Positions 1 through 17,831 of a stretch of 64,000 bases of DNA are shown one piece after another. Both the position numbers and the translations under genes were made by a program. Each line of letters opens with the position of its first letter. Position 1 is the first letter of the stretch. The DNA lies in assembly GCF_000026545.1 (NCBI RefSeq), contig NC_011601.1; one strand, 5' to 3'. The notes under the pieces were generated by a model. It had not been told where the DNA came from. It made no database searches and saw nothing but the letters and a program-made list of their open reading frames with translations. This DNA comes from Escherichia coli O127:H6 str. E2348/69. Its GTDB lineage: Bacteria > Pseudomonadota > Gammaproteobacteria > Enterobacterales > Enterobacteriaceae.

Positions 1-2
1 AT

Positions 3-140
3 CAGTTCGGTGAGCGCGATCAGGTTGCGCCGGGCATTTTCACCGATTACCCGGTACGTGAGCTGCTGGGTATCAGCCAGGCAGATGAGCGCCTGATTTA
101 TAACACGGTGCTGGGCCGGATTGCGGAGGCTGTACGGTGA
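3..140 (+). CDS. tail completion protein (P2 gpS-like), C-terminal fragment; 5' end outside window
   Basis: Open frame running into window start, stop TGA overlapping GTG start of next gene (GTGA), position immediately upstream of gpV homolog. Confidence 0.45.
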   Translation, partial: QFGERDQVAPGIFTDYPVRELLGISQADERLIYNTVLGRIAEAVR

Positions 141-718
141 GCGCAGAACTCATGCGACTGCTGAGCAACATCATTCGCACCGGGATCATCTCTGAAGTTG
201 ATGAGAAGTCCTGGCGCGTGCGCGTTCGCAGCGGCGAACTGGAAACAGGCTGGCTGCGCTGGAACACCACGCGCGCGGGAGCCTTCAATGTGTGGCTGCC
301 GCCATCACCAGGCGAACAGGTGGTAATTGCCTGCATTGGCGGCAACCCGGAAACCGCCATGATAATTGGCAGCCTGTGGAGTGATGCTATTCCGGCCCCC
401 GGCAAAAGCCTGAAAGAAATCGTGGTCAGCGCGCCGGATGGCGCGGTGTTCCGCTACGACGCGGACGCAGGCGCACTGAGCGCCAGCGGCATGAAAACAG
501 CCACCCTGCAGGCATCCGTCAGCGTGACACTGGATACGCCCGTCGTGGAATGCACAGACCTTCTGAGAACGGCGACGCTTGACGTCACAAAAGGGGGAAA
601 GATGAGCGGCAATATCACGCACAGCGGCGGCAATTTCACCTCAAACGGCATCACAGTGCATACGCATAAACACGGTGGCGTTAAAGGTGGCAGCTATTCG
701 ACAGGAGGCCCGCAGTGA
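137..718 (+). CDS. baseplate assembly/spike protein, P2 gpV-like
   Basis: 193 aa ORF, GTG start, position and size match P2 V; followed by W-J-I. Confidence 0.8.
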   Translation: MSAELMRLLSNIIRTGIISEVDEKSWRVRVRSGELETGWLRWNTTRAGAFNVWLPPSPGEQVVIACIGGNPETAMIIGSLWSDAIPAPGKSLKEIVVSAPDGAVFRYDADAGALSASGMKTATLQASVSVTLDTPVVECTDLLRTATLDVTKGGKMSGNITHSGGNFTSNGITVHTHKHGGVKGGSYSTGGPQ

Positions 719-1065
719 CAACCCGCTACACAGGAATGAACCCGGACGGAACGGGAAACCTGAACGATATGGAGCACCTGAAACAGTCAGTCAGGGACAT
801 CCTGACCACCCCGCTGGCAAGCCGGGTTATGCGACGGGAATATGGCAGCCTTGTGCCTGATTTGATTGACGAACCCATGAATAACACCACGCGTCTGCAA
901 TGCATGAGTGCTGCCGTGATTGCGCTGACACGATGGGAACCCCGCATTGCCCTGGACGCTATCGACGTTGTCTGGAAGGCAGGAGGCCGCGCCGGGGTGA
1001 CGCTGTCGGGCACTGTCATGCAGACCATGCAGAATGTTGAATTAACCATCACGCTGAGAGAGTAA
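715..1065 (+). CDS. baseplate protein, P2 gpW-like (GPW/gp25 family)
   Basis: 116 aa ORF overlapping V stop; size and order typical of P2 W. Confidence 0.8.
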   Translation: MTTRYTGMNPDGTGNLNDMEHLKQSVRDILTTPLASRVMRREYGSLVPDLIDEPMNNTTRLQCMSAAVIALTRWEPRIALDAIDVVWKAGGRAGVTLSGTVMQTMQNVELTITLRE

Positions 1066-1068
1066 ATC

Positions 1069-1965
1069 ATGCCTGCTGTTGACCTTTCCCAGTTACCGGA
1101 ACCCGCCATCATCGCGGAGCCTGATTTTGAGGCAATTCTGGCTGACACAAAGGCCATGATGATTGCGTCCTATCCTGCCGAACAGCGTGAAGCCGTCTCC
1201 GCCGCGCTGGAGCTGGAATCGGAACCCCTGAACGTTATCGCTCAAACCATGTCTTTTCGTGAAATGCTGTTACGCCAGCGGGTTAACGAGGGCGCTCGCG
1301 CCTGCATGTTAAGCCACGGTTCAGGGACAAACCTGGACAACCTCGCGGGCAATATGAACACAAAGCGCCTGGTTATCACTCCGGCAACGGATACCACCGA
1401 CGCGGTGATGGAGAGTGACACCTCGCTGAGATTGCGGGCGCAACGGGCGTATGACGGCCTGAGTGTTGCTGGTCCGTCAGGTGCATACGAGTATTTTGCA
1501 CGCAGCGCCAGCGGTCTGGTGCGTGATGCGCGGGCCATCAGCCCGTCTCCGGCCTGTGTGACGGTTTCCATCCTGTCCACTGAAGGCGACGGCACAGCAA
1601 CGGAGGCGTTGCTTAATACCGTTCGCGCCGTTCTGAATGCAGAGGATACCCGCCCGGTGGCCGACCGCCTGACCGTACAGAGCGCCAGAATCGTGACATG
1701 GCGGCTGAATGCAAAACTGTACTTTTACCCCGGCCCGGAATCCGAACCTATTCTGGCCGCGGCTGAATCGTCGTTCAGGAAGTGGCTGGCTGAGCAGGGG
1801 CTTATCGGTCAGGACGTGGCGTTGTCCGCCATTGCTGCCGCACTGCATGTGCACGGTGTGCAACGCGTGGAGATAATCGAACCCACACAGAATATGGCCA
1901 TCAGCGACATACAGGCGGCGCGCTGTGAGTCATTCACCATCAGCGAAGGTGGACGCAATGAGTAA
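1069..1965 (+). CDS. baseplate assembly protein, P2 gpJ-like
   Basis: 298 aa ORF (P2 J about 300 aa), in V-W-J-I-H order. Confidence 0.8.
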   Translation: MPAVDLSQLPEPAIIAEPDFEAILADTKAMMIASYPAEQREAVSAALELESEPLNVIAQTMSFREMLLRQRVNEGARACMLSHGSGTNLDNLAGNMNTKRLVITPATDTTDAVMESDTSLRLRAQRAYDGLSVAGPSGAYEYFARSASGLVRDARAISPSPACVTVSILSTEGDGTATEALLNTVRAVLNAEDTRPVADRLTVQSARIVTWRLNAKLYFYPGPESEPILAAAESSFRKWLAEQGLIGQDVALSAIAAALHVHGVQRVEIIEPTQNMAISDIQAARCESFTISEGGRNE

Positions 1966-2566
1966 TTCGTTGTTACCACCATCAGCCAGCAATTTCATGC
2001 GTTGTGCCGAAGCCGTCGGAACACGCATTACAGACATTCCGGTAGACCTCAACACGCTGTGGTCGCCGGACACCTGCCCGGTGCATCTGCTGCCTTATCT
2101 CGCCTGGGCATTTTCCGTTGACCGCTGGGATCGCAACTGGCCGGAAGAGACAAAGCGACAGGTGATTCGTGATGCATGGCTGATACACCGACACAAAGGG
2201 ACCATCAGCGCACTGCGAAGAGCCGTGGAGCCTCTCGGCTACCTGATTGAAGTAAAGGAGTGGTGGCAACTCAACGAGGAACCGGGAACATTTCGCATTG
2301 TTGTCGGAGTACTTGATCAGGGCATCACCGATGAAATGTATCAGGAACTTGAGCGCCTTATTGCGGATGCAAAACCAGTAAGTCGCCATCTGACGGGGCT
2401 GGCGATCAGCCTGAGTGTGAACGGAAAGATTTTCGTTGGTACGGGATGCTATCACGGCGATGCCCTGACGGTTTATCCCTACACCCCGGAGTCCATTATT
2501 GTCGAAGGGGATTATTTCCCTGCCCCAGCCATTCATTTAATTGATAATCTGAGAGTAAACGCATGA
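1958..2566 (+). CDS. tail protein, P2 gpI-like
   Basis: ORF 1925..2566; in-frame ATG at 1958 overlaps J stop; size and position match P2 I. Confidence 0.75.
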   Translation: MSNSLLPPSASNFMRCAEAVGTRITDIPVDLNTLWSPDTCPVHLLPYLAWAFSVDRWDRNWPEETKRQVIRDAWLIHRHKGTISALRRAVEPLGYLIEVKEWWQLNEEPGTFRIVVGVLDQGITDEMYQELERLIADAKPVSRHLTGLAISLSVNGKIFVGTGCYHGDALTVYPYTPESIIVEGDYFPAPAIHLIDNLRVNA

Positions 2567-4128
2567 CAGTGAAATACTACGCCATTCTGACTAATCAGGG
2601 CGCGGCACGACTGGCTAACGCGACGATGCTCGGCAGTAAGCTGAATCTGACGCAAATGGCCGTTGGTGATGCAAATGGTGTGTTACCAACACCAGACCCT
2701 GCACAAACAAAACTGATTAACCAGAAACGCATTGCACCGCTGAATCTTCTGAGTGTTGACCCTAACAATCAGAGCCAGATTATTGCGGAGCAAATCATCC
2801 CTGAAAACGAGGGAGGATTCTGGATCCGTGAGATTGGTCTTTATGATGATGAAGGTGTACTCATTGCGGTGGCAAACTGCCCGGAAACGTACAAACCGCA
2901 GTTGCAGGAAGGCAGTGGACGCACCCAGACTATCCGCATGATTCTGGTTGTCACGAACACCGAAGCCATCACGCTGAAAATCGACCCGTCTGTGGTTCTG
3001 GCAACCCGCAAATATGTGGATGATAAAATCTCAGAGCACGAACAGTCACGACGTCACCCGGACGCCTCGCTGACCGTAAAAGGTTTTACTCAGTTAAGCA
3101 GTGCAATTAACAGTGAATCAGAAACACTGGCCGCAACACCGAAAGCGGTTAAGGCTGCATATGACCTGGCTAACGGGAAATATACCGCCCAGAACGCCAC
3201 CACTACACAAAAAGGAATTGTTCAGCTCAGTAGCGCCACGAACAGCACGTCTGAAACGCTGGCAGCGACACCAAAAGCTGTTAAGGCGGTAATGGATGAA
3301 ACGAACAAGAAAGCACCATTAAACAGCCCGGCACTGACCGGAACGCCAACAACACCAACAGCGCCACAGGGGACTAATAGTACCCAGATCGCAAGCACGG
3401 CTTTCGTTATGGCCGCGATTGCCGCACTTGTAGATTCGTCACCTGATGCACTGAACACGCTGAACGAACTGGCTGCGGCGCTGGGCAATGACCCGAATTT
3501 TGCGACCACCATGACTAACGCGCTTGCGGGTAAGCAACCGAAGGATGCCACCCTGACGGCGCTGGCAGAGCTTGCTACATCAGCAGATAAACTCCCATAT
3601 TTTACAGGGGCAGATCGTGCCGCGTTAACCGCGTTGACAAGTGTTGGACGTGCCATTCTTGGTAAAACCAGCACTCAGGGAGTTCTTGATTACCTTGGTT
3701 TGGGGGAAGGCTCTGCACTGCCCGTTGGTGTGCCCGTTCCGTGGTCCTCAGCAACACCACCAACGGGCTGGCTGAAATGTAACGGTGCAGCATTTTCTTC
3801 TGAAATGTATCCCAGACTGGCAAGGGCTTATCCCACCAATAAATTACCGGATTTACGCGGTGAATTTATCCGTGGCTGGGATGATGGGCGCGGGATTGAT
3901 GCGGGACGTACCCTGCTTTCAGGGCAGGATGGTACAAGTTTTTCTCATTACGGAGGTAATTTCGACATTGGGTCTGGTCATTCAATCAATAACTATGACC
4001 AAATTGTTTCTAACCAACCAGGCTTTTCCCGTTTTTCATTTGCAGGGCCTTCACGAGGTGATGGGGTTAATTATGTAACCATTCGTCCTCGTAATATTAC
4101 GTTTAATTACATCGTAAGGGCAGCATGA
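2563..4128 (+). CDS. tail fiber protein, P2 gpH-like (constant N-terminal part fused to C-terminal cassette A)
   Basis: 521 aa ORF; internal duplicated SETLAATPKAVKA motif typical of tail fibers; C-terminal 140 aa begin with the GLGEGSALPVGVPVPW repeat shared with two other cassettes. Confidence 0.85.
   Translation: MTVKYYAILTNQGAARLANATMLGSKLNLTQMAVGDANGVLPTPDPAQTKLINQKRIAPLNLLSVDPNNQSQIIAEQIIPENEGGFWIREIGLYDDEGVLIAVANCPETYKPQLQEGSGRTQTIRMILVVTNTEAITLKIDPSVVLATRKYVDDKISEHEQSRRHPDASLTVKGFTQLSSAINSESETLAATPKAVKAAYDLANGKYTAQNATTTQKGIVQLSSATNSTSETLAATPKAVKAVMDETNKKAPLNSPALTGTPTTPTAPQGTNSTQIASTAFVMAAIAALVDSSPDALNTLNELAAALGNDPNFATTMTNALAGKQPKDATLTALAELATSADKLPYFTGADRAALTALTSVGRAILGKTSTQGVLDYLGLGEGSALPVGVPVPWSSATPPTGWLKCNGAAFSSEMYPRLARAYPTNKLPDLRGEFIRGWDDGRGIDAGRTLLSGQDGTSFSHYGGNFDIGSGHSINNYDQIVSNQPGFSRFSFAGPSRGDGVNYVTIRPRNITFNYIVRAA
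3685..3710 (+). promoter_or_regulatory. putative invertase crossover site A (hix/gix-like) at start of cassette A
   Basis: Sequence ...ccttggtttgggggaagg... marks start of ~225 bp repeat; weaker dyad than site B. Confidence 0.4.
3695..3920 (+). repeat. repeat copy A (~225 bp, direct) encoding conserved N-terminal 75 aa of tail-fiber C-terminal cassette
   Basis: Near-identical to 4134..4360 (direct) and reverse complement of 5475..5696. Confidence 0.85.
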
Positions 4129-4149
4129 AAACGTTGGTTTGGGGGAAGG
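4124..4149 (+). promoter_or_regulatory. putative invertase crossover site B (hix/gix-like)
   Basis: catGAAAACgtTGGTTTggggg resembles the AAACC..GGTTT dyad of Hin/Gin sites as recalled; sits exactly at repeat boundary. Confidence 0.45.
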
Positions 4150-4360
4150 CTCTGCACTGCCCGTTGGTGTGCCCGTTCCATGGCCCTCAGCCACGCCGCC
4201 AACGGGATGGCTGAAATGTAACGGCGCAGCATTTTCTTCTGAAAAGTACCCAAAACTGGCAAGGGCTTACCCCACCAATAAATTACCAGACTTACGCGGT
4301 GAATTTATCCGTGGCTGGGATGATGGGCGAGGAATTGATGCGGCACGCGCTTTATTGAGC
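4134..4360 (+). repeat. repeat copy B (direct relative to A)
   Basis: Sequence identity with copy A visible by eye over about 225 bp. Confidence 0.85.
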
Positions 4361-4615
4361 ATTCAAAACGGGATGTTGGAAAAACACCGCCATATTGTTG
4401 TAGCTAACGATGGATATGACACAAAGGATGAATGGGAGTTGGCCACGATTTTCAAAAAAACATATACGCAAGGCAGGGGGCTTGATGCCACAAATACAGG
4501 AGGGAGTTTGATTCCATCACCAACGCTTCATTCACGAGGAAGTATTGGTAACACAGGTGGTAGTGAAACCCGCCCCCGCAATATTGCATTTAACTATATC
4601 GTGAGGGCGGCTTAG
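4139..4615 (+). CDS. alternative tail-fiber C-terminal cassette B (promoterless, lacks fiber N-terminus)
   Basis: 158 aa ORF begins MGEGSALPVGVPVPW and ends PRNIAFNYIVRAA, same architecture as C-terminus of gpH. Confidence 0.6.
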   Translation: MGEGSALPVGVPVPWPSATPPTGWLKCNGAAFSSEKYPKLARAYPTNKLPDLRGEFIRGWDDGRGIDAARALLSIQNGMLEKHRHIVVANDGYDTKDEWELATIFKKTYTQGRGLDATNTGGSLIPSPTLHSRGSIGNTGGSETRPRNIAFNYIVRAA

Positions 4616-4621
4616 TTATAT

Positions 4622-5233
4622 TCAACTGGCTGCTGCCAGTGGTATTTCCGGCAAGTTGATATCTGGTGCCATGTTTATATCCATTGCGTTCAGCGCGTCT
4701 ATATAATCCAGCACGGCATTAAGCCGGGTGGTTTCTGCCTGCGTCAACTTCCGCCCGGCCTGCAACTTCAACTGAATCAGACTTATGGAAGCCATTGCCG
4801 CATCAGCCAGTGACTGGCGCTTGGTTTCTGCCGCTTCTACTGCAGCACGATGTTGTGCCTCAGTATCTGTCACCCATTTTTCACCATCCCATTTATCGTA
4901 TGGTGTTAACGGGGCGATAGTGGTTGTATTTTTCGGGTAGTCACCCAGCGCCGTGATTTCTTCGGTGTTTCCCGTGTCAGTGCTATAGACGGTTTCACCA
5001 CGATGGTCTGGCGCATACTCCCATGAGCTTAAATTCTCCGAACGGCGGATAGCATAGCCCGCTTTATGTGCGCCCGGGGCATCTAAACAGGAATTTGCCG
5101 GAATACCGACACCCACAGCAAGATATTCAGTTGATTCGGAAATATATTCCCGTGTCTCACCATCATAGTTATAAACGACGATGTTTCCTGCCTGTACGGC
5201 AATAAGGTCATCATTTAATATCGCGTTATTCAT
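4622..5233 (-). CDS. tail fiber assembly protein (Tfa/gpG-like chaperone)
   Basis: 203 aa ORF immediately downstream of cassette C on minus strand; size and position typical of Tfa. Confidence 0.65.
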   Translation of the reverse strand: MNNAILNDDLIAVQAGNIVVYNYDGETREYISESTEYLAVGVGIPANSCLDAPGAHKAGYAIRRSENLSSWEYAPDHRGETVYSTDTGNTEEITALGDYPKNTTTIAPLTPYDKWDGEKWVTDTEAQHRAAVEAAETKRQSLADAAMASISLIQLKLQAGRKLTQAETTRLNAVLDYIDALNAMDINMAPDINLPEIPLAAAS

Positions 5234-5700
5234 TATGCGGTTCTCACAATATAATTGAAGGCAATATTGCGTGGGTGGGTTTCATTCCCCTCTGAGGATT
5301 CCGTTCTGTATTGACTGGTAAATCTACCGTTAATTGCACCTTGCCGGACGGCGTTATCTGTCGACAACAGACTATCCCCTCCTTTGTCATTTGGCACCAA
5401 CACCGTGTTATCCCACGCATCCCATGACCGAATATTATGATAATGACTTCCTGTTAACCACCCCTGCATGCTTAAGATGCCCCTTCCGGCATCCACCCCG
5501 CGCCCATCATCCCAGCCACGGATAAATTCACCGCGTAAATCCGGTAATTTATTGGTGGGGTAGGCCTTTGCCAGTTTTGGGTACATTTCAGAAGAAAATG
5601 CTGCACCGTTACATTTCAGCCACCCTGCTGGCGGTGTGGCTGAGGGCCACGGAACAGGTACACCAACGGGCAGTGCAGAGCCTTCCCCCAAACCAACGTT
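5233..5700 (-). CDS. alternative tail-fiber C-terminal cassette C (inverted orientation)
   Basis: Minus-strand frame encodes GLGEGSALPVGVPVPW...PRNIAFNYIVRTA; the annotated Met upstream is probably not a real start. Confidence 0.6.
   Translation of the reverse strand, partial: NVGLGEGSALPVGVPVPWPSATPPAGWLKCNGAAFSSEMYPKLAKAYPTNKLPDLRGEFIRGWDDGRGVDAGRGILSMQGWLTGSHYHNIRSWDAWDNTVLVPNDKGGDSLLSTDNAVRQGAINGRFTSQYRTESSEGNETHPRNIAFNYIVRTA
5475..5696 (-). repeat. repeat copy C (inverted relative to A and B)
   Basis: Reverse complement of copies A/B. Confidence 0.85.
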
Positions 5701-5706
5701 TTCGTT
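5681..5706 (-). promoter_or_regulatory. putative invertase crossover site C (hix/gix-like), inverted, about 60 bp upstream of invertase gene
   Basis: Reverse complement reads cgAAAACgtTGGTTTgggggaagg; position next to invertase as gixR is to gin in Mu. Confidence 0.45.
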
Positions 5707-5762
5707 TTTATCCCTACCTATACCAACTCTGTATTTTTCACGAAACAAAGAGGATGTTTTTT

Positions 5763-6362
5763 ATGCAAATTGGCTATATTCGTGTGTCAACAAATGACCA
5801 GAACACGGATTTACAACGCAATGCACTGAACTGCGCAGGATGTGAACTGATTTTTGAAGATAAAATCAGCGGAACGAAATCAGCCAGACCGGGATTGAAA
5901 AAACTGCTCAGAACGCTATCAGAAGGAGATACGCTGGTTGTCTGGAAGCTGGACAGACTGGGCAGAAGTATGAAACACCTGATCACGCTTATTGAGGAAT
6001 TGCGGGAAAAAGGTGTTAATTTCCGTAGTCTGACGGACAGCATTGACACATCAACACCCATGGGGCGTTTCTTTTTTCACGTCATGGGGGCTTTAGCCGA
6101 AATGGAACGTGAATTAATTGTAGAGCGTACACTGGCCGGGCTGGCAGCAGCACGCGCACAAGGACGCATTGGCGGACGTCGCCCGAAGTTGACAAAAGAA
6201 CAACACGAGCAAATAGCGAGGCTGATTAAAAACGGTCATGACAGGAAACAACTGGCGATCATTTACGACATCGGCATATCGACGATTTATCGTTATCACC
6301 CTGTAGGCGATATACAGGCTGAAGAAACAACCAGGCAGACTCAGGAAAATAAAAACCGCTAA
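5763..6362 (+). CDS. serine DNA invertase, Gin/Pin/Cin/Hin family
   Basis: N-terminus MQIGYIRVSTNDQNTDLQRNAL and internal VVWKLDRLGRSMKHLI, SLTDSIDTSTPMGRFFFHVMGALAEMERELI match Gin/Hin as recalled; C-terminal HTH region. Confidence 0.9.
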   Translation: MQIGYIRVSTNDQNTDLQRNALNCAGCELIFEDKISGTKSARPGLKKLLRTLSEGDTLVVWKLDRLGRSMKHLITLIEELREKGVNFRSLTDSIDTSTPMGRFFFHVMGALAEMERELIVERTLAGLAAARAQGRIGGRRPKLTKEQHEQIARLIKNGHDRKQLAIIYDIGISTIYRYHPVGDIQAEETTRQTQENKNR

Positions 6363-6384
6363 TCTGACCATTAGCGGTTTTGCG
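6349..6384. terminator. bidirectional hairpin between convergent invertase and gpU genes
   Basis: Inverted repeat accgctaat/attagcggt flanked by A-run on one side and T-rich on other. Confidence 0.45.
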
Positions 6385-6388
6385 TTAA

Positions 6389-6883
6389 TCAAAACAGCCC
6401 TTTAACGGAGCTGGCCGCGCTGTTAAGGGATGATGTGACCTTATCTTTGAAGCCGGACAGCATATCACTGAACGATGAGGATTGCAGGCGCTCCCGCAAA
6501 TCCTCATCACAGCGTTCAAGAGTCAGTGAAAATTCTATCTTTTTCGCCTTACCGTAGCGATCAAACTCGGAACGGGTCGTATTCGTTTCAGTCAGTACAT
6601 ACATGCCGTAAATCTGCCCGACACCATCAATCAGAGGCCAGGGGCGTCCTGTATATGCCTGCGTGGTCAGCAACGAAAGCGACACTTCGCCACCTGTAAT
6701 TTCAGGATAAAGCACGCCGGAAAGCACGATGCGATCATCACCTGCGCCGATATACTGCCAGCTTGCTGAACGGTTAACGCGTTCATTTTTCACATGCCGC
6801 CAGCTTTTGTTTTGCTGTAACTGCTGATGCGGCAATGTGCGCAGCTCAAAAACAAACATGCCGTAGATCATCATCATGGCCAT
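6389..6883 (-). CDS. tail protein, P2 gpU-like
   Basis: 164 aa ORF directly downstream of tape measure gene; size and order match P2 U. Confidence 0.75.
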   Translation of the reverse strand: MAMMMIYGMFVFELRTLPHQQLQQNKSWRHVKNERVNRSASWQYIGAGDDRIVLSGVLYPEITGGEVSLSLLTTQAYTGRPWPLIDGVGQIYGMYVLTETNTTRSEFDRYGKAKKIEFSLTLERCDEDLRERLQSSSFSDMLSGFKDKVTSSLNSAASSVKGLF

Positions 6884-6889
6884 GACTCC

Positions 6890-9733
6890 TCAATCTTTAT
6901 CGTAAAAACTGCCACGTCCGGCACGGTCGCGTCGTTCCAATTCTGCCCTGACCATTTCACCGACCAGTTTCGCCAGTTTGCGGGGATTCTGCGTAACAAC
7001 GTTATGCAGATGAACATGAATTTCACCGCCAAATCCGGAGACAACAGGCTCCCGGTTACGGGAAGTTGCAGGAACTGATGCCACTGGCGATCGTATGGCC
7101 TCCGCCACCGGGCGGGAGCTGGCCGCAACAACAGGGACCAGCGCCGGAGGCAGAGGAGTCGGGACCACGGGTGTGATGTTGATTGCGGAAGCAGGCTTAC
7201 TGACCTGCGCAATCTTCCGCTCCTGCCACTCCCCACGAACAGCAAGTGCGCGGGGCAGATTCTTAAAGACAATATCGCCGGGGCCAATGCGTTTTTTCGT
7301 CTCATCAACCAGCTTACCTGTGTTATCAGCAATTTTGCTGAGTCTGCGTAGCGTACCGGTATTGCTGTCTGTGAGCGGTTTGTTGTCTTTGGGTTTATCA
7401 CCTCCGGTGCCATTGCCATTTTCCACAGGCTTCGGCGGATTGATTTTCGCCAGGTCCCCCTGAAGCAAGGCAACCTTGTCCTGAAGAATGGCCGCACGCT
7501 GTGCGTCTTCGATTTTCTTGCGCGCCCTTTCCGCTTCATCCGGAAGGACGCCAAGTTTTTCAAGTATCCACGCCAGCGTATCCAGTAGCATTTTTGCAGG
7601 CGTCAGAACAAGTTGTAACGCACCGCCAAGAACGTTACCGAATATCTCGCCAGCACTGGTACATTTATCCAGCGTTTCCTTGCTGGACTCCATCGGTGAC
7701 AGCAGCGATTTAAACCAGTTAAACACCTGGCTGATCCCGCTTCCGATTGCGTCAAAAACAGGACCAAACCGTTCAAAGGTTTCGCGCAACGGGGCCAGCC
7801 TTTCCATAATCCCGCTGAACACCCCGGCAAAAAATGCCCTGATGGGATCCCAGTATTTCCAGATAAGAACGGCAGCTCCGGCAAGTGCAGCCACGATAAG
7901 ACCAACCGGACTGAACAGCGCCCCGATAGCGCCTCCCAGTAAAGAAACGGAACCCGTCACCATTCCCCATAGTGCTGGCAGGACCCTGACAGCATTCATT
8001 GATCCGGTCAGGAGAGAAAAACCAAGACGCAGTTTTGCCAGCGGACCAGCAAGCACACCAATAGCCAGCGACAACGAGCCAACCGTTGCAGTCATTGCCA
8101 GCAACGCACCGCCTGCTATCAGTAGCTGGCGCGTCAGTGCCGGATGGGCCTGCGCCAGCGCCGTCACCCTTGATACCACCCGCGTGAGCCACTGCGTGAC
8201 AGAACGCAGCGGACCGTCAATCAGATCTGCAATGCGGATGCGCAACCCTTCCCATGCACTGCCGAGTGATTTCAGATCGCCGTCAAGGTTGTTGGCCATA
8301 ACCTTTGCTGTGCGTTCAGCCTCACCGCGCGCGCCTTCAAGTTCTTTTCTCAGTTTGGGTAAGGAACCGTCACCCGCTGCATCAACGAGCGCCATAAACG
8401 ATGTGAAAGCCTCTTCTCCGGCAATGTCCTTAAAGAACGATACCCGGTCAACTTCCCCGTATTTGCGGGTGGCTTTATAAAGGTCGGCCAGCACATCCTC
8501 CATCGGGCGCATTTTGCCCCCGGCATCCGAGACGGACACGCCCAGCTCTTTCAGAGCTTCTGCCGCCGCCTTTGGCGGTGATGCCAGACGAGCCAGGCTG
8601 GCACGCATTGCCGTCCCGGCATCACTCCCTCTGATGCCCATATTCGCCAGCACGCCAGCCATCGCTGCGGCCTGCTCCAGCGATATTCCCAGCTTACCCG
8701 CCACCGGACCTGCATATTTCATGGTTTCGCCCAGTGCGCGAAGGTCAGTGTTGGTACGGGTAAACGCTGCGGTGAGTGTGTCACCGACCCGGTCCATCTG
8801 GTCAGCAGAAAGGCCGAACTGCGTCAGGATATTTGAGCCAATATCTGCCGTCTCGCCGAGATCCATACCGCCAGCCGTTGCCATGCTCAGCACTCCGGGA
8901 AGCGCAGCCTGAATGGCCTGCGGTGTGAAGCCAGCCATTGCAAGAAATGCCTGCCCACTGGCGGCATCGCCTGCGGTGAACTGCGTTTCAGAGCCAAGTT
9001 TTAACGCCTGCTCACGCAGCGCCTTAAACTGCGGGCTGTTCTGGTCGATTCGCGTCAGCGCCTGAACGCGGGACATCTCTTTGCCGAACCCGATCGCGGG
9101 CTGCAAAAAACGCCCGGCAGCATAGCCGCCCGCCGCTGCCGCACCAATTGCCAGCGCACCACCTGTTTTCAGTTTTCCCGCGGTTTCCTGCGCGCGCGAA
9201 TACCGCTCACGCGCCCGCGTTACACGCGCAAGCGCCTGCCGTTCGCGTTCAAGCTGGTTGTTGTACTGTTCGGTGCGTCTGATGGCCTGCTGGATGGTGT
9301 TATCGCTGCCTGTCAGGGAAATGCCGTGGCGTTTCAGCTCTCCGCCAAGTTCCCGCATTTTCTGAATTTCCCGTGTGCGCGATTCATTCAGGCGTTCAAG
9401 CCGGGTGCTTAACTGCTGCATCAGCTTTTGTTGTTTTTCGCTGAGCACTGTACCCGTGCGTTGTAACTGATTAAGAGCGTTAAGCTGGCGTCGTGCTTTC
9501 AATATGCCAGCATCCGCTTTACTGACAGCGTCACGGGCGCGCTCAAATGAACGCGCCTGACGCTCGAGATTTTTGATCGCCCCCTGCGTTCGCTGGATGG
9601 AGTCACCAAACTGCCCCATCAGGCGGCGGGCGTTTTCGGCAGGCCGGGTCAGCCTGTCAACGGCGCTGAAAGCGACCCGGATATCAAGAGTCTTCATTGT
9701 CTGTATTCCCGCTGCGAAGTGCCGCCCGCTCAC
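6890..9733 (-). CDS. tail tape measure protein, P2 gpT-like (start uncertain: GTG 9733 or ATG 9697)
   Basis: 947 aa ORF, Ala/Gly-rich with hydrophobic segments, follows E/E' as in P2. Confidence 0.8.
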   Translation of the reverse strand: MSGRHFAAGIQTMKTLDIRVAFSAVDRLTRPAENARRLMGQFGDSIQRTQGAIKNLERQARSFERARDAVSKADAGILKARRQLNALNQLQRTGTVLSEKQQKLMQQLSTRLERLNESRTREIQKMRELGGELKRHGISLTGSDNTIQQAIRRTEQYNNQLERERQALARVTRARERYSRAQETAGKLKTGGALAIGAAAAGGYAAGRFLQPAIGFGKEMSRVQALTRIDQNSPQFKALREQALKLGSETQFTAGDAASGQAFLAMAGFTPQAIQAALPGVLSMATAGGMDLGETADIGSNILTQFGLSADQMDRVGDTLTAAFTRTNTDLRALGETMKYAGPVAGKLGISLEQAAAMAGVLANMGIRGSDAGTAMRASLARLASPPKAAAEALKELGVSVSDAGGKMRPMEDVLADLYKATRKYGEVDRVSFFKDIAGEEAFTSFMALVDAAGDGSLPKLRKELEGARGEAERTAKVMANNLDGDLKSLGSAWEGLRIRIADLIDGPLRSVTQWLTRVVSRVTALAQAHPALTRQLLIAGGALLAMTATVGSLSLAIGVLAGPLAKLRLGFSLLTGSMNAVRVLPALWGMVTGSVSLLGGAIGALFSPVGLIVAALAGAAVLIWKYWDPIRAFFAGVFSGIMERLAPLRETFERFGPVFDAIGSGISQVFNWFKSLLSPMESSKETLDKCTSAGEIFGNVLGGALQLVLTPAKMLLDTLAWILEKLGVLPDEAERARKKIEDAQRAAILQDKVALLQGDLAKINPPKPVENGNGTGGDKPKDNKPLTDSNTGTLRRLSKIADNTGKLVDETKKRIGPGDIVFKNLPRALAVRGEWQERKIAQVSKPASAINITPVVPTPLPPALVPVVAASSRPVAEAIRSPVASVPATSRNREPVVSGFGGEIHVHLHNVVTQNPRKLAKLVGEMVRAELERRDRAGRGSFYDKD

Positions 9734-9947
9734 GCCAGCTAACCACTTCGCCGGGAGTCATCATGAAGATTTCGGCGGGCGACCAGTTAAAAATGGTGGC
9801 AATATCCGCCACCAGATCTTCGATGTGCTCAAAGCACACCAGGGTGATTACGCTGCCGTCTCCTGCACGCTCTTCGCGCCAGAGTCTGGCTCGCTCATAA
9901 AATTTACAGCCACAGCGCACAACTGAATAAAATCGCGTGACGACATT
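9684..9947 (-). CDS. gpE' extension, expressed as E+E' fusion by programmed -1 frameshift
   Basis: Overlapping frame downstream of an A-run (ttaaaaaaatg) inside E; C-terminus ...NTDNEDS typical of E+E'. Confidence 0.5.
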   Translation of the reverse strand, partial: NVVTRFYSVVRCGCKFYERARLWREERAGDGSVITLVCFEHIEDLVADIATIFNWSPAEIFMMTPGEVVSWRERAALRSGNTDNEDS

Positions 9948-10222
9948 TTTTTAATCATCACTTCATCCAGTTGTGGCGAGGTCACGCGAGGCAACAGCGT
10001 GAACATGGTATCCGCTTTCAGATTCAGCACATCAGACAGCGACAGACCACGCAGGGATCCCGCCTGCTCAATAGCCCCGGTGATCTCCACATATGTGATT
10101 TTTTCGGCACCACGCTCAATTGGCCGGGAAAGTTTTACACCACGTTCGACAGCCATATCCTCACCTGCCGTCACATCATCCGCTACGGTGTTATTCCGGG
10201 TTTCAGTATCGATATTTTTCAT
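9848..10222 (-). CDS. tail assembly chaperone, P2 gpE-like
   Basis: ORF between FII and T; N-terminus MKNIDTETRNN; paired with overlapping E' frame. Confidence 0.7.
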   Translation of the reverse strand: MKNIDTETRNNTVADDVTAGEDMAVERGVKLSRPIERGAEKITYVEITGAIEQAGSLRGLSLSDVLNLKADTMFTLLPRVTSPQLDEVMIKKMSSRDFIQLCAVAVNFMSEPDSGAKSVQETAA

Positions 10223-10277
10223 CAGTTGTCTCCTTTTCAGTCAGAGGCGACGCACTGCGCCGCCTGCATATTACTTA

Positions 10278-10790
10278 TCAGCCAAGCCCGAGCGCGGAAC
10301 GGATGCGATCGGGCACAATGTCCTTGCCGTCCTTCCGGTAAATGAAGTTCAGCAGGTCAATCTCCCACAACGGACGATCGTTAACACTCAGCTTGTAGTA
10401 GGTGTTTTTAATGGCGTAAGTGTGTGATGTGGCTTCGCCCTGTTTGGCTTCCCCCATATCAATTTCCGTCACACGTCCGCGCATTTCGACTTCATACAGG
10501 TCGCTTTCTGCATCGGTGTAATATTCACCCGCAAAACGCAGCAGCGTGCCGTCAATCGTGCCGCCATACTTAAGGAACAGCTCACGAACTGCGCCCCCCA
10601 TGACAAAGCTCGCATCAAGCGCGGAGTCGTCCAGACCGAGATCAATACTTACCGCCCCCATCATGCCACCACCCCGGTAGCTGTCGGTTTTGCGCGTCAG
10701 CTTAGGCAGGGTGACGGACGTCACCTTACCCACTTCGTTTTCACCATCCACAAACAGCGTAAAAAAGCGAAGATGTTTTGGCACAGCCAT
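10278..10790 (-). CDS. tail tube protein, P2 gpFII-like
   Basis: 170 aa ORF directly downstream of sheath gene. Confidence 0.8.
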   Translation of the reverse strand: MAVPKHLRFFTLFVDGENEVGKVTSVTLPKLTRKTDSYRGGGMMGAVSIDLGLDDSALDASFVMGGAVRELFLKYGGTIDGTLLRFAGEYYTDAESDLYEVEMRGRVTEIDMGEAKQGEATSHTYAIKNTYYKLSVNDRPLWEIDLLNFIYRKDGKDIVPDRIRSALGLG

Positions 10791-11974
10791 CAGGCACCTC
10801 CCAGCACCGCAAATGCGGGTTCAAAGTATTCATCAGTAAACGTCTGGTAAAGCTCCATGTCTTCCAGTGGCGGAACGGGCGTATATTTGTAGCGAATACG
10901 CACACGCCCCTGACGTAAATCCGTGGTGCTGTTATCCACCACGTCATACCAGCACTCCGCGCCAATCAGTTTCCCGGCAGTCACCAGTGAATCCAGTTTT
11001 GCCCTGATGGCACTGATAACATCCTTCACGTTCGCAGGCGTCAGTGGACTGTCGATGGTTTCAAACTGCGCTTCCGCAATTGAATCAGCCAGCACCTGTG
11101 CGGTTCGGGTATACACCTCAAAGATGTAGGCGTTCGTTTCCGGTGTGCGGTTGCCCCAGAAGCGGAACCCGTTGCGACGAATAATGGTCGTGATTTCTTT
11201 GTTGTTGAGGCTGTTGGCATCGCTGTCTTCGGCCTGCAACGACCAGAACACATGCCTCGACATCCCCAGCACATTTTTAACCGGAACGTTGGACAGTGAT
11301 TTGTGCCAGCCCTGCTCATGGTCAATGTACGCACGAAGGCCGCACGCATAGGCAGGCGCGGGGAACGTTTCGTTTTTGCCACTTTTCGGGTTGTAGGCGA
11401 TGAAGTCCGGCCATAAGAGCATCACCTCACGTTCGTTGAATTTCTGGCGGTAGGTAATCGCATCAGCCATCGTGTCACAGCCATGACATGAGGCATACAC
11501 AAACGCGCGCAGTTTACCCGCAATCACGCACAGGGATTTTGTCACCGCCTCCGTGTCCAGCTCCGGCGCGGCCAGAATACGCGGACGGTATCCGATGCTT
11601 TCATCCTGCTCTGCAACAAGCAGCGCATACATCCCCGTATAGCTGCCGTCAGATTCAGAACCACCGATAACCAGTTGATCCTGCGTCTTTCCGTCTTCTT
11701 CTTTGTGTTCAGCCACGCGAACGACGATCACCTTTGTGCTCACCTGGTCTGCGATAGCCTTAAGCGCACGATAAAGCGTCCCCGTTGTCCCGCATTTTCC
11801 CAGCACGTCATTGACGCGGGTCAGCAGTGTGGGCTTGTTCAGCGGGAACAGCTTCGCGTCCGCATCATCCGCCGTTGCCACGATACCGATAACACTGGAA
11901 TCAACATCATTAATCGCTGTTACCAGGTCGGTATTTTCCGTAACACGGGCACCATGAAAACGAGTTTCACTCAT
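10790..11974 (-). CDS. contractile tail sheath protein, P2 gpFI-like
   Basis: About 394 aa from internal Met MSETRFHG of 452 aa ORF; position before FII. Confidence 0.8.
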   Translation of the reverse strand: MSETRFHGARVTENTDLVTAINDVDSSVIGIVATADDADAKLFPLNKPTLLTRVNDVLGKCGTTGTLYRALKAIADQVSTKVIVVRVAEHKEEDGKTQDQLVIGGSESDGSYTGMYALLVAEQDESIGYRPRILAAPELDTEAVTKSLCVIAGKLRAFVYASCHGCDTMADAITYRQKFNEREVMLLWPDFIAYNPKSGKNETFPAPAYACGLRAYIDHEQGWHKSLSNVPVKNVLGMSRHVFWSLQAEDSDANSLNNKEITTIIRRNGFRFWGNRTPETNAYIFEVYTRTAQVLADSIAEAQFETIDSPLTPANVKDVISAIRAKLDSLVTAGKLIGAECWYDVVDNSTTDLRQGRVRIRYKYTPVPPLEDMELYQTFTDEYFEPAFAVLGGA

Positions 11975-12131
11975 AGCTTCAGCCCCTTGTATCCGTAAAA
12001 TGATTCGGCAACAATCATCACCCACCACGCGCGTAATCTCACCCCTGCGCCGTTCTCCCGACCCGGCGACAACAAAAAGCAGTAACCCCCTCCGCACGCA
12101 CATGCGACCATGCCGCACAGGGAGGGAACAG

Positions 12132-13232
12132 ATGACCGATACCACCATGCAATTGCTCAGTCAGGGCACAGACCCCGTGAAAATGCCGGATTTTGATATT
12201 CTCGCGGAGGGTAAAACGCTGTCAGGCGTGGCAGAGCGCCTGATGAGCCTGTCACTGACCGACAACCGGGGATTTGAGGCGGACCAGCTCACCATCACGC
12301 TGGATGATGCGGATGGTCAGTTGCAGCTACCGCCACGGGGCGCGCGCCTGACGGTTCTCATTGGCTGGAAAGGAGAACCGCTGACAGAAAAAGGCACTTA
12401 CATTGTTGATGAAATCGCTCACGAAGGACCGCCGGACAGGCTGACTGTTTCAGCCAGAAGCGCAGATTTTCGGGATGAATTTAACGTTAAACGTGAGGTG
12501 TCCTGGCATGATGTGACCGTTGAGCGCGTGGTATCTGCCATCGCTCATCGGTACGGTCTGAAACCGCAAATCAGCGAAATACTGATGGATATCGAAATCG
12601 ACCACGCCGACCAGACCGAAGAAAGCGACATGTCCTTCCTTACGCGCATGGCGGAAATGCTGGGCGCAATCACCACGGTAAAAAGCGGTAATCTGTTATT
12701 CATCATGCCAGGCGGTCGCGTGAACGCACTGGGCCAGCCGTTGCCATCGTTCGCCATCACACGCAGCAGCGGCGATCGCCATCAGTTCCGCATTGCTGAC
12801 CGCGAGGCGTATACGGGTGTACGCGCCTACTGGCTTGATCTTAATTACGGGAAAAAGAAAAAAGTCAGCGTGAAACGCCGCAAACCGAAAAAAGAGAAAA
12901 GCAGCAGCCGTGAAGGTGACTATATGGAAGGTGCGGAAGGCAACGTGTTTGTGTTACGCAAAACTTATCAGAACGAGCAGGCAGCAAGACGCGCAGCGGC
13001 GGCAAAATGGCAGCAGCTACAACGCGGAGCCGCATCATTTTCCATCACGCTGGCACGTGGACGAGCAGAACTCTACCCCGAAATGCATGGCACGGTAACA
13101 GGATTTAAAAGCGAGATTGATAATCAGGACTGGATCATTGCAAAAGCCGAGCACACCATTGATAACAGTGGCTTTACCACGCAGCTTGAGCTTGAAGCCA
13201 AAATCCCGGAATGGATAGCAGAAACAGAGTAA
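12132..13232 (+). CDS. tail protein, P2 gpD-like
   Basis: About 366 aa from MTDTTMQLL; lysine-rich linker; precedes ogr as in P2. Confidence 0.75.
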   Translation: MTDTTMQLLSQGTDPVKMPDFDILAEGKTLSGVAERLMSLSLTDNRGFEADQLTITLDDADGQLQLPPRGARLTVLIGWKGEPLTEKGTYIVDEIAHEGPPDRLTVSARSADFRDEFNVKREVSWHDVTVERVVSAIAHRYGLKPQISEILMDIEIDHADQTEESDMSFLTRMAEMLGAITTVKSGNLLFIMPGGRVNALGQPLPSFAITRSSGDRHQFRIADREAYTGVRAYWLDLNYGKKKKVSVKRRKPKKEKSSSREGDYMEGAEGNVFVLRKTYQNEQAARRAAAAKWQQLQRGAASFSITLARGRAELYPEMHGTVTGFKSEIDNQDWIIAKAEHTIDNSGFTTQLELEAKIPEWIAETE

Positions 13233-13426
13233 ACAACTTAGATGCATTAGCCCTGACATTTGCTAACGCGCTTACAGCAAGAATCATAACCAATCTGACA
13301 GCCTACCCGGTGTCAAAATCAGAAGAGCCTTACATTAGAATATGTTAATTTGTAGCAAACAAATTTACACACAAATGATTACTGCTGAAATAGCCCCCAT
13401 AAATGCCATGTCAAAGGATCCATGTT

Positions 13427-14092
13427 ATGAATATGCAAATTTTTATCGCACCAGCAGCCACAGTTGCTGCAGTCTGCCTTGCTGCATATTTTGCTTTACG
13501 AAATGAACGTAAAAAGAAAGCACTTGAGATTAGAACAACTCAACTAGATCGAATATCTGAGCTAGTAAACCGAGCATCTACCAATTTGATGCAATATACA
13601 GGTACTCTTGCCTCTATACTGGAAGCGCACGCCAAAGATAATTATCTACCGAACAAAAAATTTGACATTAATGTAATTAGCAAATGGAAAGATTGCCTCG
13701 ATGAGAGTGAGGTCTGGGCGATTGATATACAGCAACTAAGAACATGTCAGCACAGTCTGGAGTTTCATCGTGAAAAAGAATGGGCTGAATGGAAAAAAAT
13801 AATTCCACCATTACTTGATAAAATTAACCAATTTTTTCTCATATCTAAGCCAGGGCAACCTGTTACGTTTATAAATGGCCAAAACAAAACAGCTGATGAA
13901 CTACTTGTTTTCTCAAGATATTTGAGAAAACAAACAGCAGAAATTGAATCAGTACGTCAGCTGTTACTTTCTCAAATGAGAGAGGAATTCATCGAGTTAA
14001 CTAGCTTTGAACCTGTCACAATGTTTAGCTTATTTAAATCAATAAAGAAAAATGTCATGCAATTTTTCTGTATCAGTGCTCTTAAAAATTGA
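13427..14092 (+). CDS. hypothetical membrane-anchored protein (N-terminal TM helix), AT-rich insert between D and ogr
   Basis: 229 aa ORF (13403..14092; likely start 13427 or 13433); hydrophobic N-terminus IFIAPAATVAAVCLAAYFAL then charged helical region; markedly lower GC than flanking phage genes. Confidence 0.55.
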   Translation: MNMQIFIAPAATVAAVCLAAYFALRNERKKKALEIRTTQLDRISELVNRASTNLMQYTGTLASILEAHAKDNYLPNKKFDINVISKWKDCLDESEVWAIDIQQLRTCQHSLEFHREKEWAEWKKIIPPLLDKINQFFLISKPGQPVTFINGQNKTADELLVFSRYLRKQTAEIESVRQLLLSQMREEFIELTSFEPVTMFSLFKSIKKNVMQFFCISALKN

Positions 14093-14241
14093 CGCTCTGT
14101 TGCAAGCAACCCCAGTGTTAAACTGGGGTTATTCTTGCTAAGAGACCTTTCTACGGCATCAGTAAACAAAACGAACTATCAGTTGGAGTCTGAGCAAGTT
14201 CAGCCTAAACTAGCGACAGCACTACGTTAAGGGAGGTCGCT

Positions 14242-14502
14242 ATGTTCCGTTGTCCGCTTTGTGGCGCATCTGCCCGTATCCGCACCAGTCGTCCGGAAAA
14301 TGATTCAAACACCGTGCGGCAAAAGTATTACCAGTGTAACAACCTGGAATGCGGCGTATGCTTCTCAACACTGGAAGCTTTCCATAAATTCACATCGAAA
14401 CACGCCTCCGGCATCCACTCTTCAGAAGGTATCCCGTGGCATGAGCTGCCAGCTTCACACAGGGGAAACAATCAGATGAGCTTGCCTTTACCTCAGAATT
14501 AA
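14242..14502 (+). CDS. ogr: late gene transcriptional activator, Ogr/Delta zinc-finger family
   Basis: N-terminus MFRCPLCGASARIRTSR...YYQCNNLECG with Cys-x2-Cys...Cys-x4-Cys pattern as in P2 Ogr; 86 aa, longer than the ~72 aa recalled for P2. Confidence 0.8.
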   Translation: MFRCPLCGASARIRTSRPENDSNTVRQKYYQCNNLECGVCFSTLEAFHKFTSKHASGIHSSEGIPWHELPASHRGNNQMSLPLPQN

Positions 14503-14562
14503 CAGGCAGAATTGCCGGAGTAACAAAAACGCGATAGATTACGCGCGGGTGCCTTTCGGCTG

Positions 14563-14775
14563 ATGGTCGGAGGGAATACCCGAAGGCCAGATGTGGAAAG
14601 GCCCCGGAAAACATCTCTGTTTAACCGAGGCCCTAACCGCATTACCTTGACAAGTGAAAGGTTAGCGCCTCTCCGGAAAAGGAGCAAGTGCTATGTCGCA
14701 AAAATCGCTTACGGCCATCACGTTCTGCGTGACGGCAATCCTCATCATCTGGATGTTGCACGGTTCGCTGTGTGA
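14563..14775 (+). CDS. mok-like overlapping reading frame of hok-family locus
   Basis: 70 aa ORF in different frame overlapping the hok-like ORF, as mok overlaps hok in plasmid R1. Confidence 0.4.
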   Translation: MVGGNTRRPDVERPRKTSLFNRGPNRITLTSERLAPLRKRSKCYVAKIAYGHHVLRDGNPHHLDVARFAV

Positions 14776-14833
14776 AATACGGATGAGCTTCTGGGGAGCG
14801 GAGTTTGCGGCGTTCTTACAGTGTAAGCAGTAA
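14693..14833 (+). CDS. Hok/Gef-family type I toxin (small membrane peptide)
   Basis: 46 aa: MSQKSLTAITFCVTAILIIWMLHGSLCEIRMSFWGAEFAAFLQCKQ; TM segment followed by SLCEIR and E(V/F)AAF motifs of Hok; good SD (aaaaggag) upstream. Confidence 0.75.
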   Translation: MSQKSLTAITFCVTAILIIWMLHGSLCEIRMSFWGAEFAAFLQCKQ

Positions 14834-14917
14834 GGAAACCGCGACGGGGGAGCAATCCCCCGTCAATCGGTTGCCAGGGTAAGGTCGATAAGGCACCCTA
14901 TCTCACAGACATGAACA

Positions 14918-14952
14918 ACAAACCCGCAGCATAAAAACTGCGGGTTTTCTTT
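14918..14952 (+). terminator. rho-independent terminator downstream of hok-like gene
   Basis: aaacccgcagcataaaaactgcgggttttcttttt hairpin plus T-tract. Confidence 0.6.
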
Positions 14953-15099
14953 TTGGTGTCCTCACCGACTTGAAACAGTGATCAGACTATAAGACAAAGC
15001 CCACAATGTAGCGGGCTTACTCCCCTCCCCCCACTAAATGTGGACGCATCGTGGAACGAAGAGATATAAAACATTATAAATCAATTAGTTATTGAAAGA

Positions 15100-15132
15100 A
15101 AAAAGGCCGCAGAGCGGCCTTTTTAGTTAGAT
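15100..15132 (-). terminator. rho-independent terminator of pheST-ihfA operon
   Basis: aaaaaggccgctctgcggccttttttc on minus strand just after ihfA stop. Confidence 0.7.
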
Positions 15133-15136
15133 CAGA

Positions 15137-15436
15137 TTACTCGTCTTTGGGCGAAGCGTTTTCGACCCGGCTTTTTAACTTCTGCCCGGGTCTGAAGGTC
15201 ACCACGCGCCGTGCTGTAATGGGAATATCCTCGCCCGTTTTCGGGTTACGTCCCGGGCGTTGATTCTTATCACGCAGATCGAAGTTACCAAAACCAGAGA
15301 GTTTCACCTGTTCGCCGTTTTCCAGAGCGCGACGGATCTCTTCGAAAAACAGTTCAACCAGTTCTTTGGCATCCCGCTTGCTAAGCCCAAGCTTATCAAA
15401 CAGATATTCTGACATTTCAGCTTTTGTAAGCGCCAT
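15137..15436 (-). CDS. ihfA: integration host factor alpha subunit
   Basis: 99 aa [33 protein letters not shown]... matches IHF-alpha. Confidence 0.95.
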
Positions 15437-15440
15437 AGGT

Positions 15441-17831
<2,391 letters not shown>

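Follow-up and report, generated by a model that had tools for sequence, protein, structure and literature searches.

We propose that the hairpin lying where the genes of a Din-family invertase and of the tail protein U converge, in a P88-like prophage, is an ordinary bidirectional intrinsic (Rho-independent) terminator, which would work better in the direction of the tail operon; on the sequence at hand, we consider this reading highly probable. The anatomy of the hairpin supports the model, as it fits a two-way terminator common to the convergent invertase and U genes and stronger in the U direction. The strongest evidence for a function is comparative: among relatives, a hairpin keeps this position and does not keep its sequence. 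The element is only a new instance of its kind, in a common and already sequenced phage lineage.

The hairpin and its genomic setting

The window, by which we mean the whole 64-kb stretch of DNA analysed, carries the right part of a P88-like prophage (Xuanwuvirus, Peduoviridae), and Xuanwuvirus phages (P88, P884B11, Citrobacter phiSM and others) match this region at 92-96% identity. The 551 nt tested across the junction are 100% identical to the chromosome of E. coli 1303 and, partial matches included, this probe finds a counterpart in 1498 of 5426 complete E. coli genomes. The genes V-W-J-I-H and the invertible fibre cassettes are found on the + strand, followed by the invertase on the same strand, the U-T-E-FII-FI block on the - strand and D on the + strand again; a cargo ORF, ogr, hok and the end of the prophage near ihfA lie to the right of D (Table 1). 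In this last part, the Pfam matches are an Ogr/Delta zinc-finger protein, a Hok toxin and a host IHF/HU-family gene, which from its sequence we take to be ihfA. The leftward operon FI-FII-E-T-U has U as its final gene, and D is located 5.2 kb from U on the opposite strand. P88 and phiSM are annotated with the same gene order and with a DNA invertase, and the Pfam matches of the two convergent genes (Resolvase and HTH_7; Phage_P2_GpU) bear out their first naming as an invertase and U.

Read directly, positions 6349-6391 are aTAAAAACCGCTAATctgaccATTAGCGGTTTTgcgttaatca. The two arms (6352-6363, AAAACCGCTAAT; 6370-6381, ATTAGCGGTTTT) form a perfect stem of 12 bp closed by a loop of 6 nt (CTGACC, 6364-6369). 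The 9-bp stem that had originally been pointed out, accgctaat/attagcggt, is exact and corresponds to the G+C-containing core of the hairpin (6355-6363/6370-6378), which the outer A-T pairs lengthen to 12 bp. It had been placed within the 26 bp that separate the two stop codons; the size of this gap is correct (6363-6388, between the invertase TAA at 6360-6362 and the U TGA at 6391-6389 on the - strand), but the left arm coincides with the end of the invertase ORF, its final codons (K-N-R) and its stop, so that the intergenic part is restricted to the loop and the right arm, from which the U stop codon is 7 nt away. The A-run described on one side and the T-rich sequence described on the other are both present on the + strand, the former at 6346-6355 (AAAATAAAAA) and the latter 3' of the stem (TTTTGCGTT).

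Four of the 12 pairs are G-C, and this A+T-rich stem confers on the hairpin a moderate stability for a terminator. The minimum free energy of the whole hairpin is -15.7 kcal/mol on the + strand (z = -2.95, with 1 of 200 shuffles equally good) and -18.4 kcal/mol on the - strand (z = -2.24), the centroid fold energy ranges from -14.7 to -17.6 kcal/mol, and the 9-bp core folded by itself has -10.9 (+) and -12.3 (-) kcal/mol. In the whole 64-kb window, only three perfect hairpins, this one included, have arms of at least 12 bp and loops of 3-8 nt, and 30 first-order Markov simulations of 64 kb yielded a mean of 0.0; the hairpin exceeds chance expectation. Its 26-mer occurs once in the window, even when 3 mismatches are allowed, which rules out a dispersed repeat of the REP type. 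An Rfam search of positions 1-16000, at E-values up to 1, returned no match at the hairpin, nor any between 6000 and 7000.

Table 1. Positions of the hairpin, its flanking tracts and the neighbouring prophage genes in the window
Feature	Position	Strand	Basis
Din-family DNA invertase, 199 aa	5763..6362	+	Pfam Resolvase 3.4e-51, HTH_7; start codon and ribosome-binding site; P88/phiSM annotation
Tail 3' of the stem, tail-operon (U-sense) transcript	6342..6351	-	TATTTTCCTG; with four stem T's, UUUUUAUUUU; T-rich in all relatives
Hairpin, probable bidirectional intrinsic terminator	6352..6381	.	Sequence, fold, - strand scan match, stem kept in 13 distinct relatives
Candidate U-tract, invertase-sense transcript	6378..6386	+	TTTTGCGTT; weaker than the - strand tract; P88 and phiSM have TTTTTGTGTT
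gpU tail gene, last of the leftward late tail operon	6389..6883	-	Pfam Phage_P2_GpU 5.5e-39; 41% identical to P2 U
T tape measure	6890-9733	-	Pfam PhageMin_Tail; P88/phiSM annotation
E/E'	about 9684-10222	-	P88/phiSM annotation
FII tube	10278-10790	-	Pfam Phage_tube; P88/phiSM annotation
FI sheath	10790-11974	-	Pfam Phage_sheath; start codon; P88/phiSM annotation
Ogr-type activator dyad TCT-N12-ACA, predicted	12054..12071	.	Within the 157-bp divergent FI|D intergenic region
gpD gene, apart from U, divergent from FI	12132..13232	+	Pfam Phage_GPD; start codon; same place in P88, phiSM, phiT5282H, 3LV2017
ogr homologue	14242-14502		Pfam Ogr/Delta zinc-finger

Direction of the predicted termination

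The hairpin has the stem-loop of an intrinsic terminator (a stem of at least 5 bp with G+C, a loop of 3-8 nt) and the position of one, at the 3' end of the transcription units, just past the U stop and overlapping the invertase stop. Its layout is also that of a bidirectional terminator, with a single palindrome between convergent genes, the A-run on its 5' side and the T-run on its 3' side. A U-rich tract is found in the direction of the tail operon (- strand), where the sequence is T-rich in 13 of the 13 family variants, and the RNA downstream of the 9-bp core, UUUUAUUUU, constitutes a near-ideal tail. In the invertase sense, the corresponding RNA is UUUGCGUU, a short and interrupted tract with 5 U in 8 positions (UUUUGUGUU in relatives). 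A consensus terminator scan called the hairpin on the - strand only (12 pairs, tail TATTTTCCTG), and between H and the hairpin it detected no + strand candidate better than the hairpin itself. The original prediction that both transcripts could be terminated here is supported by the two-way anatomy and by the good U-sense tract, and is weakened for the invertase side by the poorer + strand tract and the lack of a scan call on that strand. Because this U-tract is short and interrupted and the scan made no + strand call, the termination of the invertase-sense transcripts may be partial.

In the model we propose, the hairpin would act as a two-way Rho-independent terminator between two transcription units of the prophage that run towards each other. 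The late tail operon FI-FII-E/E'-T-U would be transcribed from the right, presumably from an Ogr-dependent promoter in the FI|D region; the RNA polymerase would pass the U stop, then the stem ACCGCUAAU...AUUAGCGGU and finally UUUUAUUUU, thereby releasing the transcript. From the left would come the invertase transcript, together with a putative read-through of the V-W-J-I-H tail-fibre late operon, and on this strand the complementary hairpin would be followed by the weaker tract UUUGCGUU. The hairpin would define the 3' ends of both units and probably stabilise them; as an insulator between two strongly expressed late units, it would spare the invertase and fibre genes antisense transcripts from the tail operon, and the tail genes those of the opposite unit. 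The anatomy, the gene order and the presence of a hairpin at this position in relatives are observed; termination itself, how efficient it is on either strand and which promoters drive the units are inferred.

The promoter invoked on the right is suggested by the predicted dyad of Table 1. In P2, a dyad of this type (TGT-N12-ACA) is expected about 80 nt upstream of the FI start, and the TCT-N12-ACA found here is 88 nt from the FI ATG, compared with 82 nt for the P2 pF dyad located by the same scan, which falls inside the annotated activator site of P2. The dyad is conserved in P88, phiSM, phiT5282H and 3LV2017, that is, in three genera. It is presumed to be the late promoter element that would start the operon ending at the hairpin; inspection of the FI|D region by eye revealed no convincing -10 element, the activator dyad being the only promoter feature there.

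The hairpin family of the window comprises 13 distinct sequences, in which the loop occurs in 5 versions and the 10-bp core is never broken. Only three substitutions are found in the stem; each leaves a G.U wobble in the U-sense RNA and would leave an A.C mismatch in the invertase-sense one, a hint that selection would act mainly on the RNA of the tail operon, with 3 of 3 variants giving a p value of 0.125 only. Every member of the family keeps an A-run on the U-proximal side of the hairpin and a T-run on the other. Compensatory double changes were absent from the 13 sequences, in which 8 of the 12 pairs are invariant, and hence covariation is uninformative; for this reason, we relied on the unrelated hairpins that occupy the same position in other relatives.

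An IMG/VR search with a gpU alignment provided 80 loci (related viral contigs). In most of them a hairpin is present 3' of the U stop, at 0-47 nt, and at least 15 sequence families, unrelated to one another, are represented among these hairpins. Of the 54 distinct downstream sequences, 40 (74%) carry a perfect-stem hairpin at -10 kcal/mol or lower, against 15% of 540 control windows taken from adjacent coding DNA (Mann-Whitney p = 3e-12), and the figure of 74% is conservative because RNAfold detected imperfect stems, such as GTCGCCA...TGGCGAC in 9 loci, that escaped the perfect-stem finder. The Novemvirus phage phiT5282H has a hairpin of unrelated sequence past the U stop (AAGCGGGCAnnnTGCCCGCTT), as does the Reginaelenavirus phage 3LV2017 (AAAGCCCCTT...AAGGGGCTTT). 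In E. coli prophages whose U is 94-97% identical and whose neighbouring gene differs, the homology with the window ends at 6383-6387 and a different hairpin follows U. Nothing except the A+T-rich composition of the stem would favour a functionless palindrome produced by chance, an idea that can practically be dismissed in view of the simulations, of the excess over the control windows under this strict test and of a stem that is conserved around a variable loop.

The hairpin is separable from both adjacent genes, since it is kept in PhiR44_2, where the invertase is reduced to a 3' remnant of 55 nt, and in Chuche, where other sequence takes the place of the left flank to within about 10 nt of the stem, and since the P1-type invertase genes lack it: those of P1-like plasmids match the window only to 6306, about 55 nt before the stop.

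The persistence of the hairpin with U when the invertase is absent, the contrast between the two tails, the scan call on the - strand only and the three natural stem variants that stay paired only in the U-sense RNA would all be accounted for if the hairpin terminated the tail operon only, the invertase-sense transcripts then reading into antisense U or being stopped by collision or by Rho. This one-way scheme nevertheless leaves unexplained the retention of both the A-run and the T-run in every family member, the better + strand tract of the P88-type variants (TTTTTGTGTT) and the fact that the unrelated hairpins found beside convergent neighbours mostly have both A- and T-runs on their flanks (for example, AAAACGCCCG...CGGGCGTTTT), and we grant it only a small, though appreciable, chance against the bidirectional terminator. 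Some relatives, especially those with a co-directional downstream gene, have hairpins with poor T-tracts; in these, the conserved need may be a 3' stabiliser or a pause site and not an efficient terminator.

Orientation of the tail block relative to P2

In P2, the F operon has the order FI-FII-E-T-U-D, and U and D overlap by one base (TAATG). The phage phiCTX and the R-type pyocins share this contiguous FI...U-D order, and given that background the order of P88 would be a derived state. In the window, D does not directly follow U on one strand (Table 1): the FI-U block is inverted relative to P2, to the V-H block and to D-ogr, and one of the junctions of the inverted block falls at the hairpin. 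The presence of a terminator directly after U had been thought unexpected and had been taken as support for an inversion junction at this place. The first point is not supported: a terminator is expected there because U is the terminal gene of a leftward operon and D is not adjacent to it. The second point stands in part, as the FI-U block is indeed inverted with one end at the hairpin, but the hairpin provides no independent evidence for the inversion because it follows from the gene order; the inverted FI-U architecture would have created the need for a terminator here. The comparison with the U-D junction of P2, which had been suggested as a check, opposes the TAATG overlap of P2 to genes that are well separated here, and the latter order proves to be fixed across three genera.

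Indeed, the same gene order is found in Xuanwuvirus, Novemvirus and Reginaelenavirus, including phiT5282H and 3LV2017, whose U is only 62-73% identical to that of the window. All 80 IMG/VR loci have the order of the window and none has D after U. With a chimeric probe that fuses the 3' end of U to the 5' end of D, a joined arrangement being called at a coverage of at least 80%, U and D were joined on one strand in none of the 1412 E. coli genomes carrying both alleles. When both orientations were sought among the 80 loci, 13 phage records and these 1412 genomes, one orientation only was found. No inverted repeats or crossover sites pair the region of about 6340-6400 with that of about 11975-12131, and the Din-type sites of the invertase (core TTCCCCCAAACCAA, centre AAACC-NN-GGTTT) are located only at about 3690, 4127 and 5703, around the fibre cassettes. 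These comparisons argue that the FI-U inversion is ancient, fixed and clade-wide, and not local, recent or programmed.

Two candidates were rejected on these grounds. The hairpin is not a Din-type crossover site, as its AAAACC lies on the outside of the dyad and not at its centre, and FI-U is not an invertible segment, as it has no flanking inverted repeats and no genome with the alternative orientation was found.

The inverted state of the block, one end of which is at the hairpin, and the gene for a site-specific invertase that directly adjoins it could evoke an inversion scar, left by a recent or invertase-driven flip of the tail block, the terminator being an anomaly of that event. The distribution of the order over three genera with such divergent U genes and over all the loci and genomes surveyed, the lack of repeats or sites pairing the ends of the block and the confinement of the invertase sites to the fibre cassettes make this scenario scarcely credible; moreover, P88 and phiSM, both with this gene order, are viable phages (PMC5285337, PMC6456863). 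The papers on these two phages and a 2026 survey of P2-like viruses are silent on the gene order, the inversion and the terminators.

The F operon of P2 and ogr end at an annotated Rho-independent terminator (24265-24288 in NC_001895, AAAGCCCCTCAGTCGAGGGGCTTTTTT), which resembles the hairpin of the window in that it ends a late tail operon of a Peduoviridae phage and is made of an A-run, a stem containing G+C, a short loop and a T-run. The two have unrelated sequences, and the P2 terminator faces attP and not a convergent gene. It is located after the contiguous U-D-ogr, whereas in the window the operon ends at U, and D-ogr is transcribed rightward on its own. The hairpin helps to draw the operon map of a prophage type that is very common, in which the tail operon ends at U and D belongs to a separate divergent unit, and annotators should not transfer to these phages the operon structure of P2, from FI to D and ogr.

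The cargo slot beyond U and comparison with known systems

The first gene beyond U could be classified in 79 of the 80 IMG/VR loci. It is a convergent invertase in 26 of them, a convergent tail-fibre assembly gene (Caudo_TAP) in 23, a co-directional hexapeptide acetyltransferase in 16 and a convergent GT9-family glycosyltransferase in 5, the others being singletons, among them an apparent IS transposase; the slot thus has at least five alternative neighbours. A hairpin past U occurs with any of them, be it the invertase, the fibre-assembly gene, the acetyltransferase or the glycosyltransferase.

The hairpin borders a cargo slot whose position matches that of the Z/fun locus of P2, between G and FI. 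In P2-like phages, this Z/fun slot is recognised as a hot spot for foreign genes. In both phage types, a variable and non-essential gene separates the fibre module from the F-operon block. The P2 occupant, fun(Z), is encoded on the opposite strand between the fibre gene G and FI, and the slot of P88-like prophages is either empty or filled by an invertase, a hexapeptide acetyltransferase or a GT9 glycosyltransferase. The two slots differ in what they abut: with FI-U inverted, the P88-like slot abuts the 3' end of U and the terminator, whereas that of P2 abuts the pF promoter. The hairpin marks the place of this slot, which receives surface-modifying genes (O-acetyltransferase, heptosyltransferase-family) or a host-range switch.

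Breakpoints of homology are found close to the hairpin on both sides and in different lineages, on the left at about 6343 in Chuche and about 6304 in PhiR44_2, and on the right at 6383-6387. Could the hairpin be the physical boundary for the exchange of cargo cassettes in P88-like prophages, hairpin-forming DNA or terminator-associated recombination driving the mosaicism? We regard this as unlikely. With such a boundary, each cassette (invertase, acetyltransferase, GT9 glycosyltransferase) would bring its own hairpin abutting the U stop. The breakpoints a few bases from the hairpin and the number of alternative neighbours might also be taken to mean that the palindrome acts as DNA, either as the site of a dimeric protein or as a recombination hot spot for cargo exchange, termination then being incidental. 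We judge this very unlikely: unrelated hairpin sequences at the same place fit a structural requirement of the RNA and not a sequence-specific DNA site, the centre of the hairpin is not that of a Din-type crossover site, and breakpoints at an intergenic boundary are expected anyway from selection on mosaic phage genomes.

The preferred reading, a bidirectional intrinsic terminator, can be set beside other known arrangements. In the Din modules (Mu gin, P1 cin, e14 pin), as in the window, the invertase gene directly borders the invertible tail-fibre segment on its outer side and points away from it; the hairpin does not belong to such a module, as the P1-type invertase genes attest. Bidirectional terminators between convergent genes of E. 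coli have been described as prevalent (Ju et al. 2019, as summarised in bioRxiv 10.1101/2022.10.23.513370), and according to that summary this class is unlike intrinsic terminators in its RNA sequence and works via collisions between polymerases. The hairpin shares with these convergent-pair terminators a single stem-loop, so placed that it could end both transcripts, and a very short distance between the two stops (26 bp here). It differs from the collision-dependent class, as that summary presents it, by its canonical A- and U-tracts, and because these tracts are present it would need no collision model. The practical value of the hairpin is modest and current understanding is left unchallenged; for synthetic biology, it offers a compact natural candidate of 30 bp for a bidirectional terminator.

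A candidate late promoter region and a second cargo slot

Transcription of FI and D, which are divergent in this P88-like prophage, may proceed from two late promoters that are both served by one candidate Ogr-type dyad, the only one found in the intergenic region between these genes (11975-12131). The dyad lies 88 nt from the start of FI and 69 nt from that of D, and the spacing to D is steady at 68-71 nt in the three genera compared. In Klebsiella phage 3LV2017, the corresponding element is a perfect TGT-N12-ACA.

Downstream of D, the interval that precedes ogr is a second cargo slot, distinct from the variable position between the fibre module and U. It is occupied here by an ORF for which no match was found in Pfam or PADLOC, whereas the same position is empty in P88 and contains other ORFs in phiSM, one of which is annotated as TagO.

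The tail-fibre switch

The tail-fibre switch (3690-5750) looks like a multi-cassette arrangement and not a simple two-state G-segment. Its three crossover sites are of the Din type and share the core TTCCCCCAAACCAA, and it has three variable C-terminal cassettes, the first of which is the one presently joined to H. In the present orientation, no fibre-assembly gene is found on the + strand of the switch.

Some relatives have IS elements in their tail region. In the related viral locus L089, a truncated U is followed directly by a 345-aa ORF that, judged by eye, appears to encode an IS transposase, and the tail region contains IS100 (IS21 family) in Escherichia phage 520873 (loci H1/H2) and in phage 503458 (loci H8/H9).

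Additional hairpins and the prophage end

A second small terminator-like hairpin, located in the final codons of U and just upstream of the main hairpin where U and the convergent invertase gene meet, is probably incidental because its T-tract, TTTTGATT in the window, is interrupted in P88 (TTCTGATT). Besides the main hairpin, the window contains only two perfect hairpins with arms of at least 12 bp, one in the cargo ORF and the other in host DNA.

The prophage end carries a toxin-antitoxin pair of the hok/sok type (14547-14833). It is adjoined (14920-15436) by a host gene of the IHF/HU family, read from its sequence as ihfA, together with an sRNA match and two strong hairpins that look bidirectional.

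Features of the prophage and of the adjacent host DNA (window positions)
Feature	Position	Strand	Remark
Crossover site A	~3690-3715		within H
Fibre cassette 1	3692-4128		joined to H
Crossover site B	4127-4150		direct relative to A
Fibre cassette 2	4139-4615	+	silent
Fibre-assembly gene	4622-5233	-	sole copy in switch
Fibre cassette 3	5233-5748	-	
Crossover site C	5680-5703		inverted
Small hairpin	6395-6413	-	6-bp stem
Ogr-type dyad	12054-12071		TCT-N12-ACA
229-aa cargo ORF	13403-14092	+	A+T-rich
Perfect hairpin	13905-13933		12-bp arms
sok-like RNA match	14547-14706		48.4 bits, under Rfam gathering score of 59
Hok ORF	14693-14833		Pfam HOK_GEF, 4e-7
Strong hairpin	14920-14947		
STnc540 sRNA match	15051-15195	-	exceeds Rfam gathering score
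Strong hairpin	15100-15124		
IHF/HU-family gene	15137-15436	-	Pfam Bac_DNA_binding
Perfect hairpin	29047-29084		15-bp arms; host DNA
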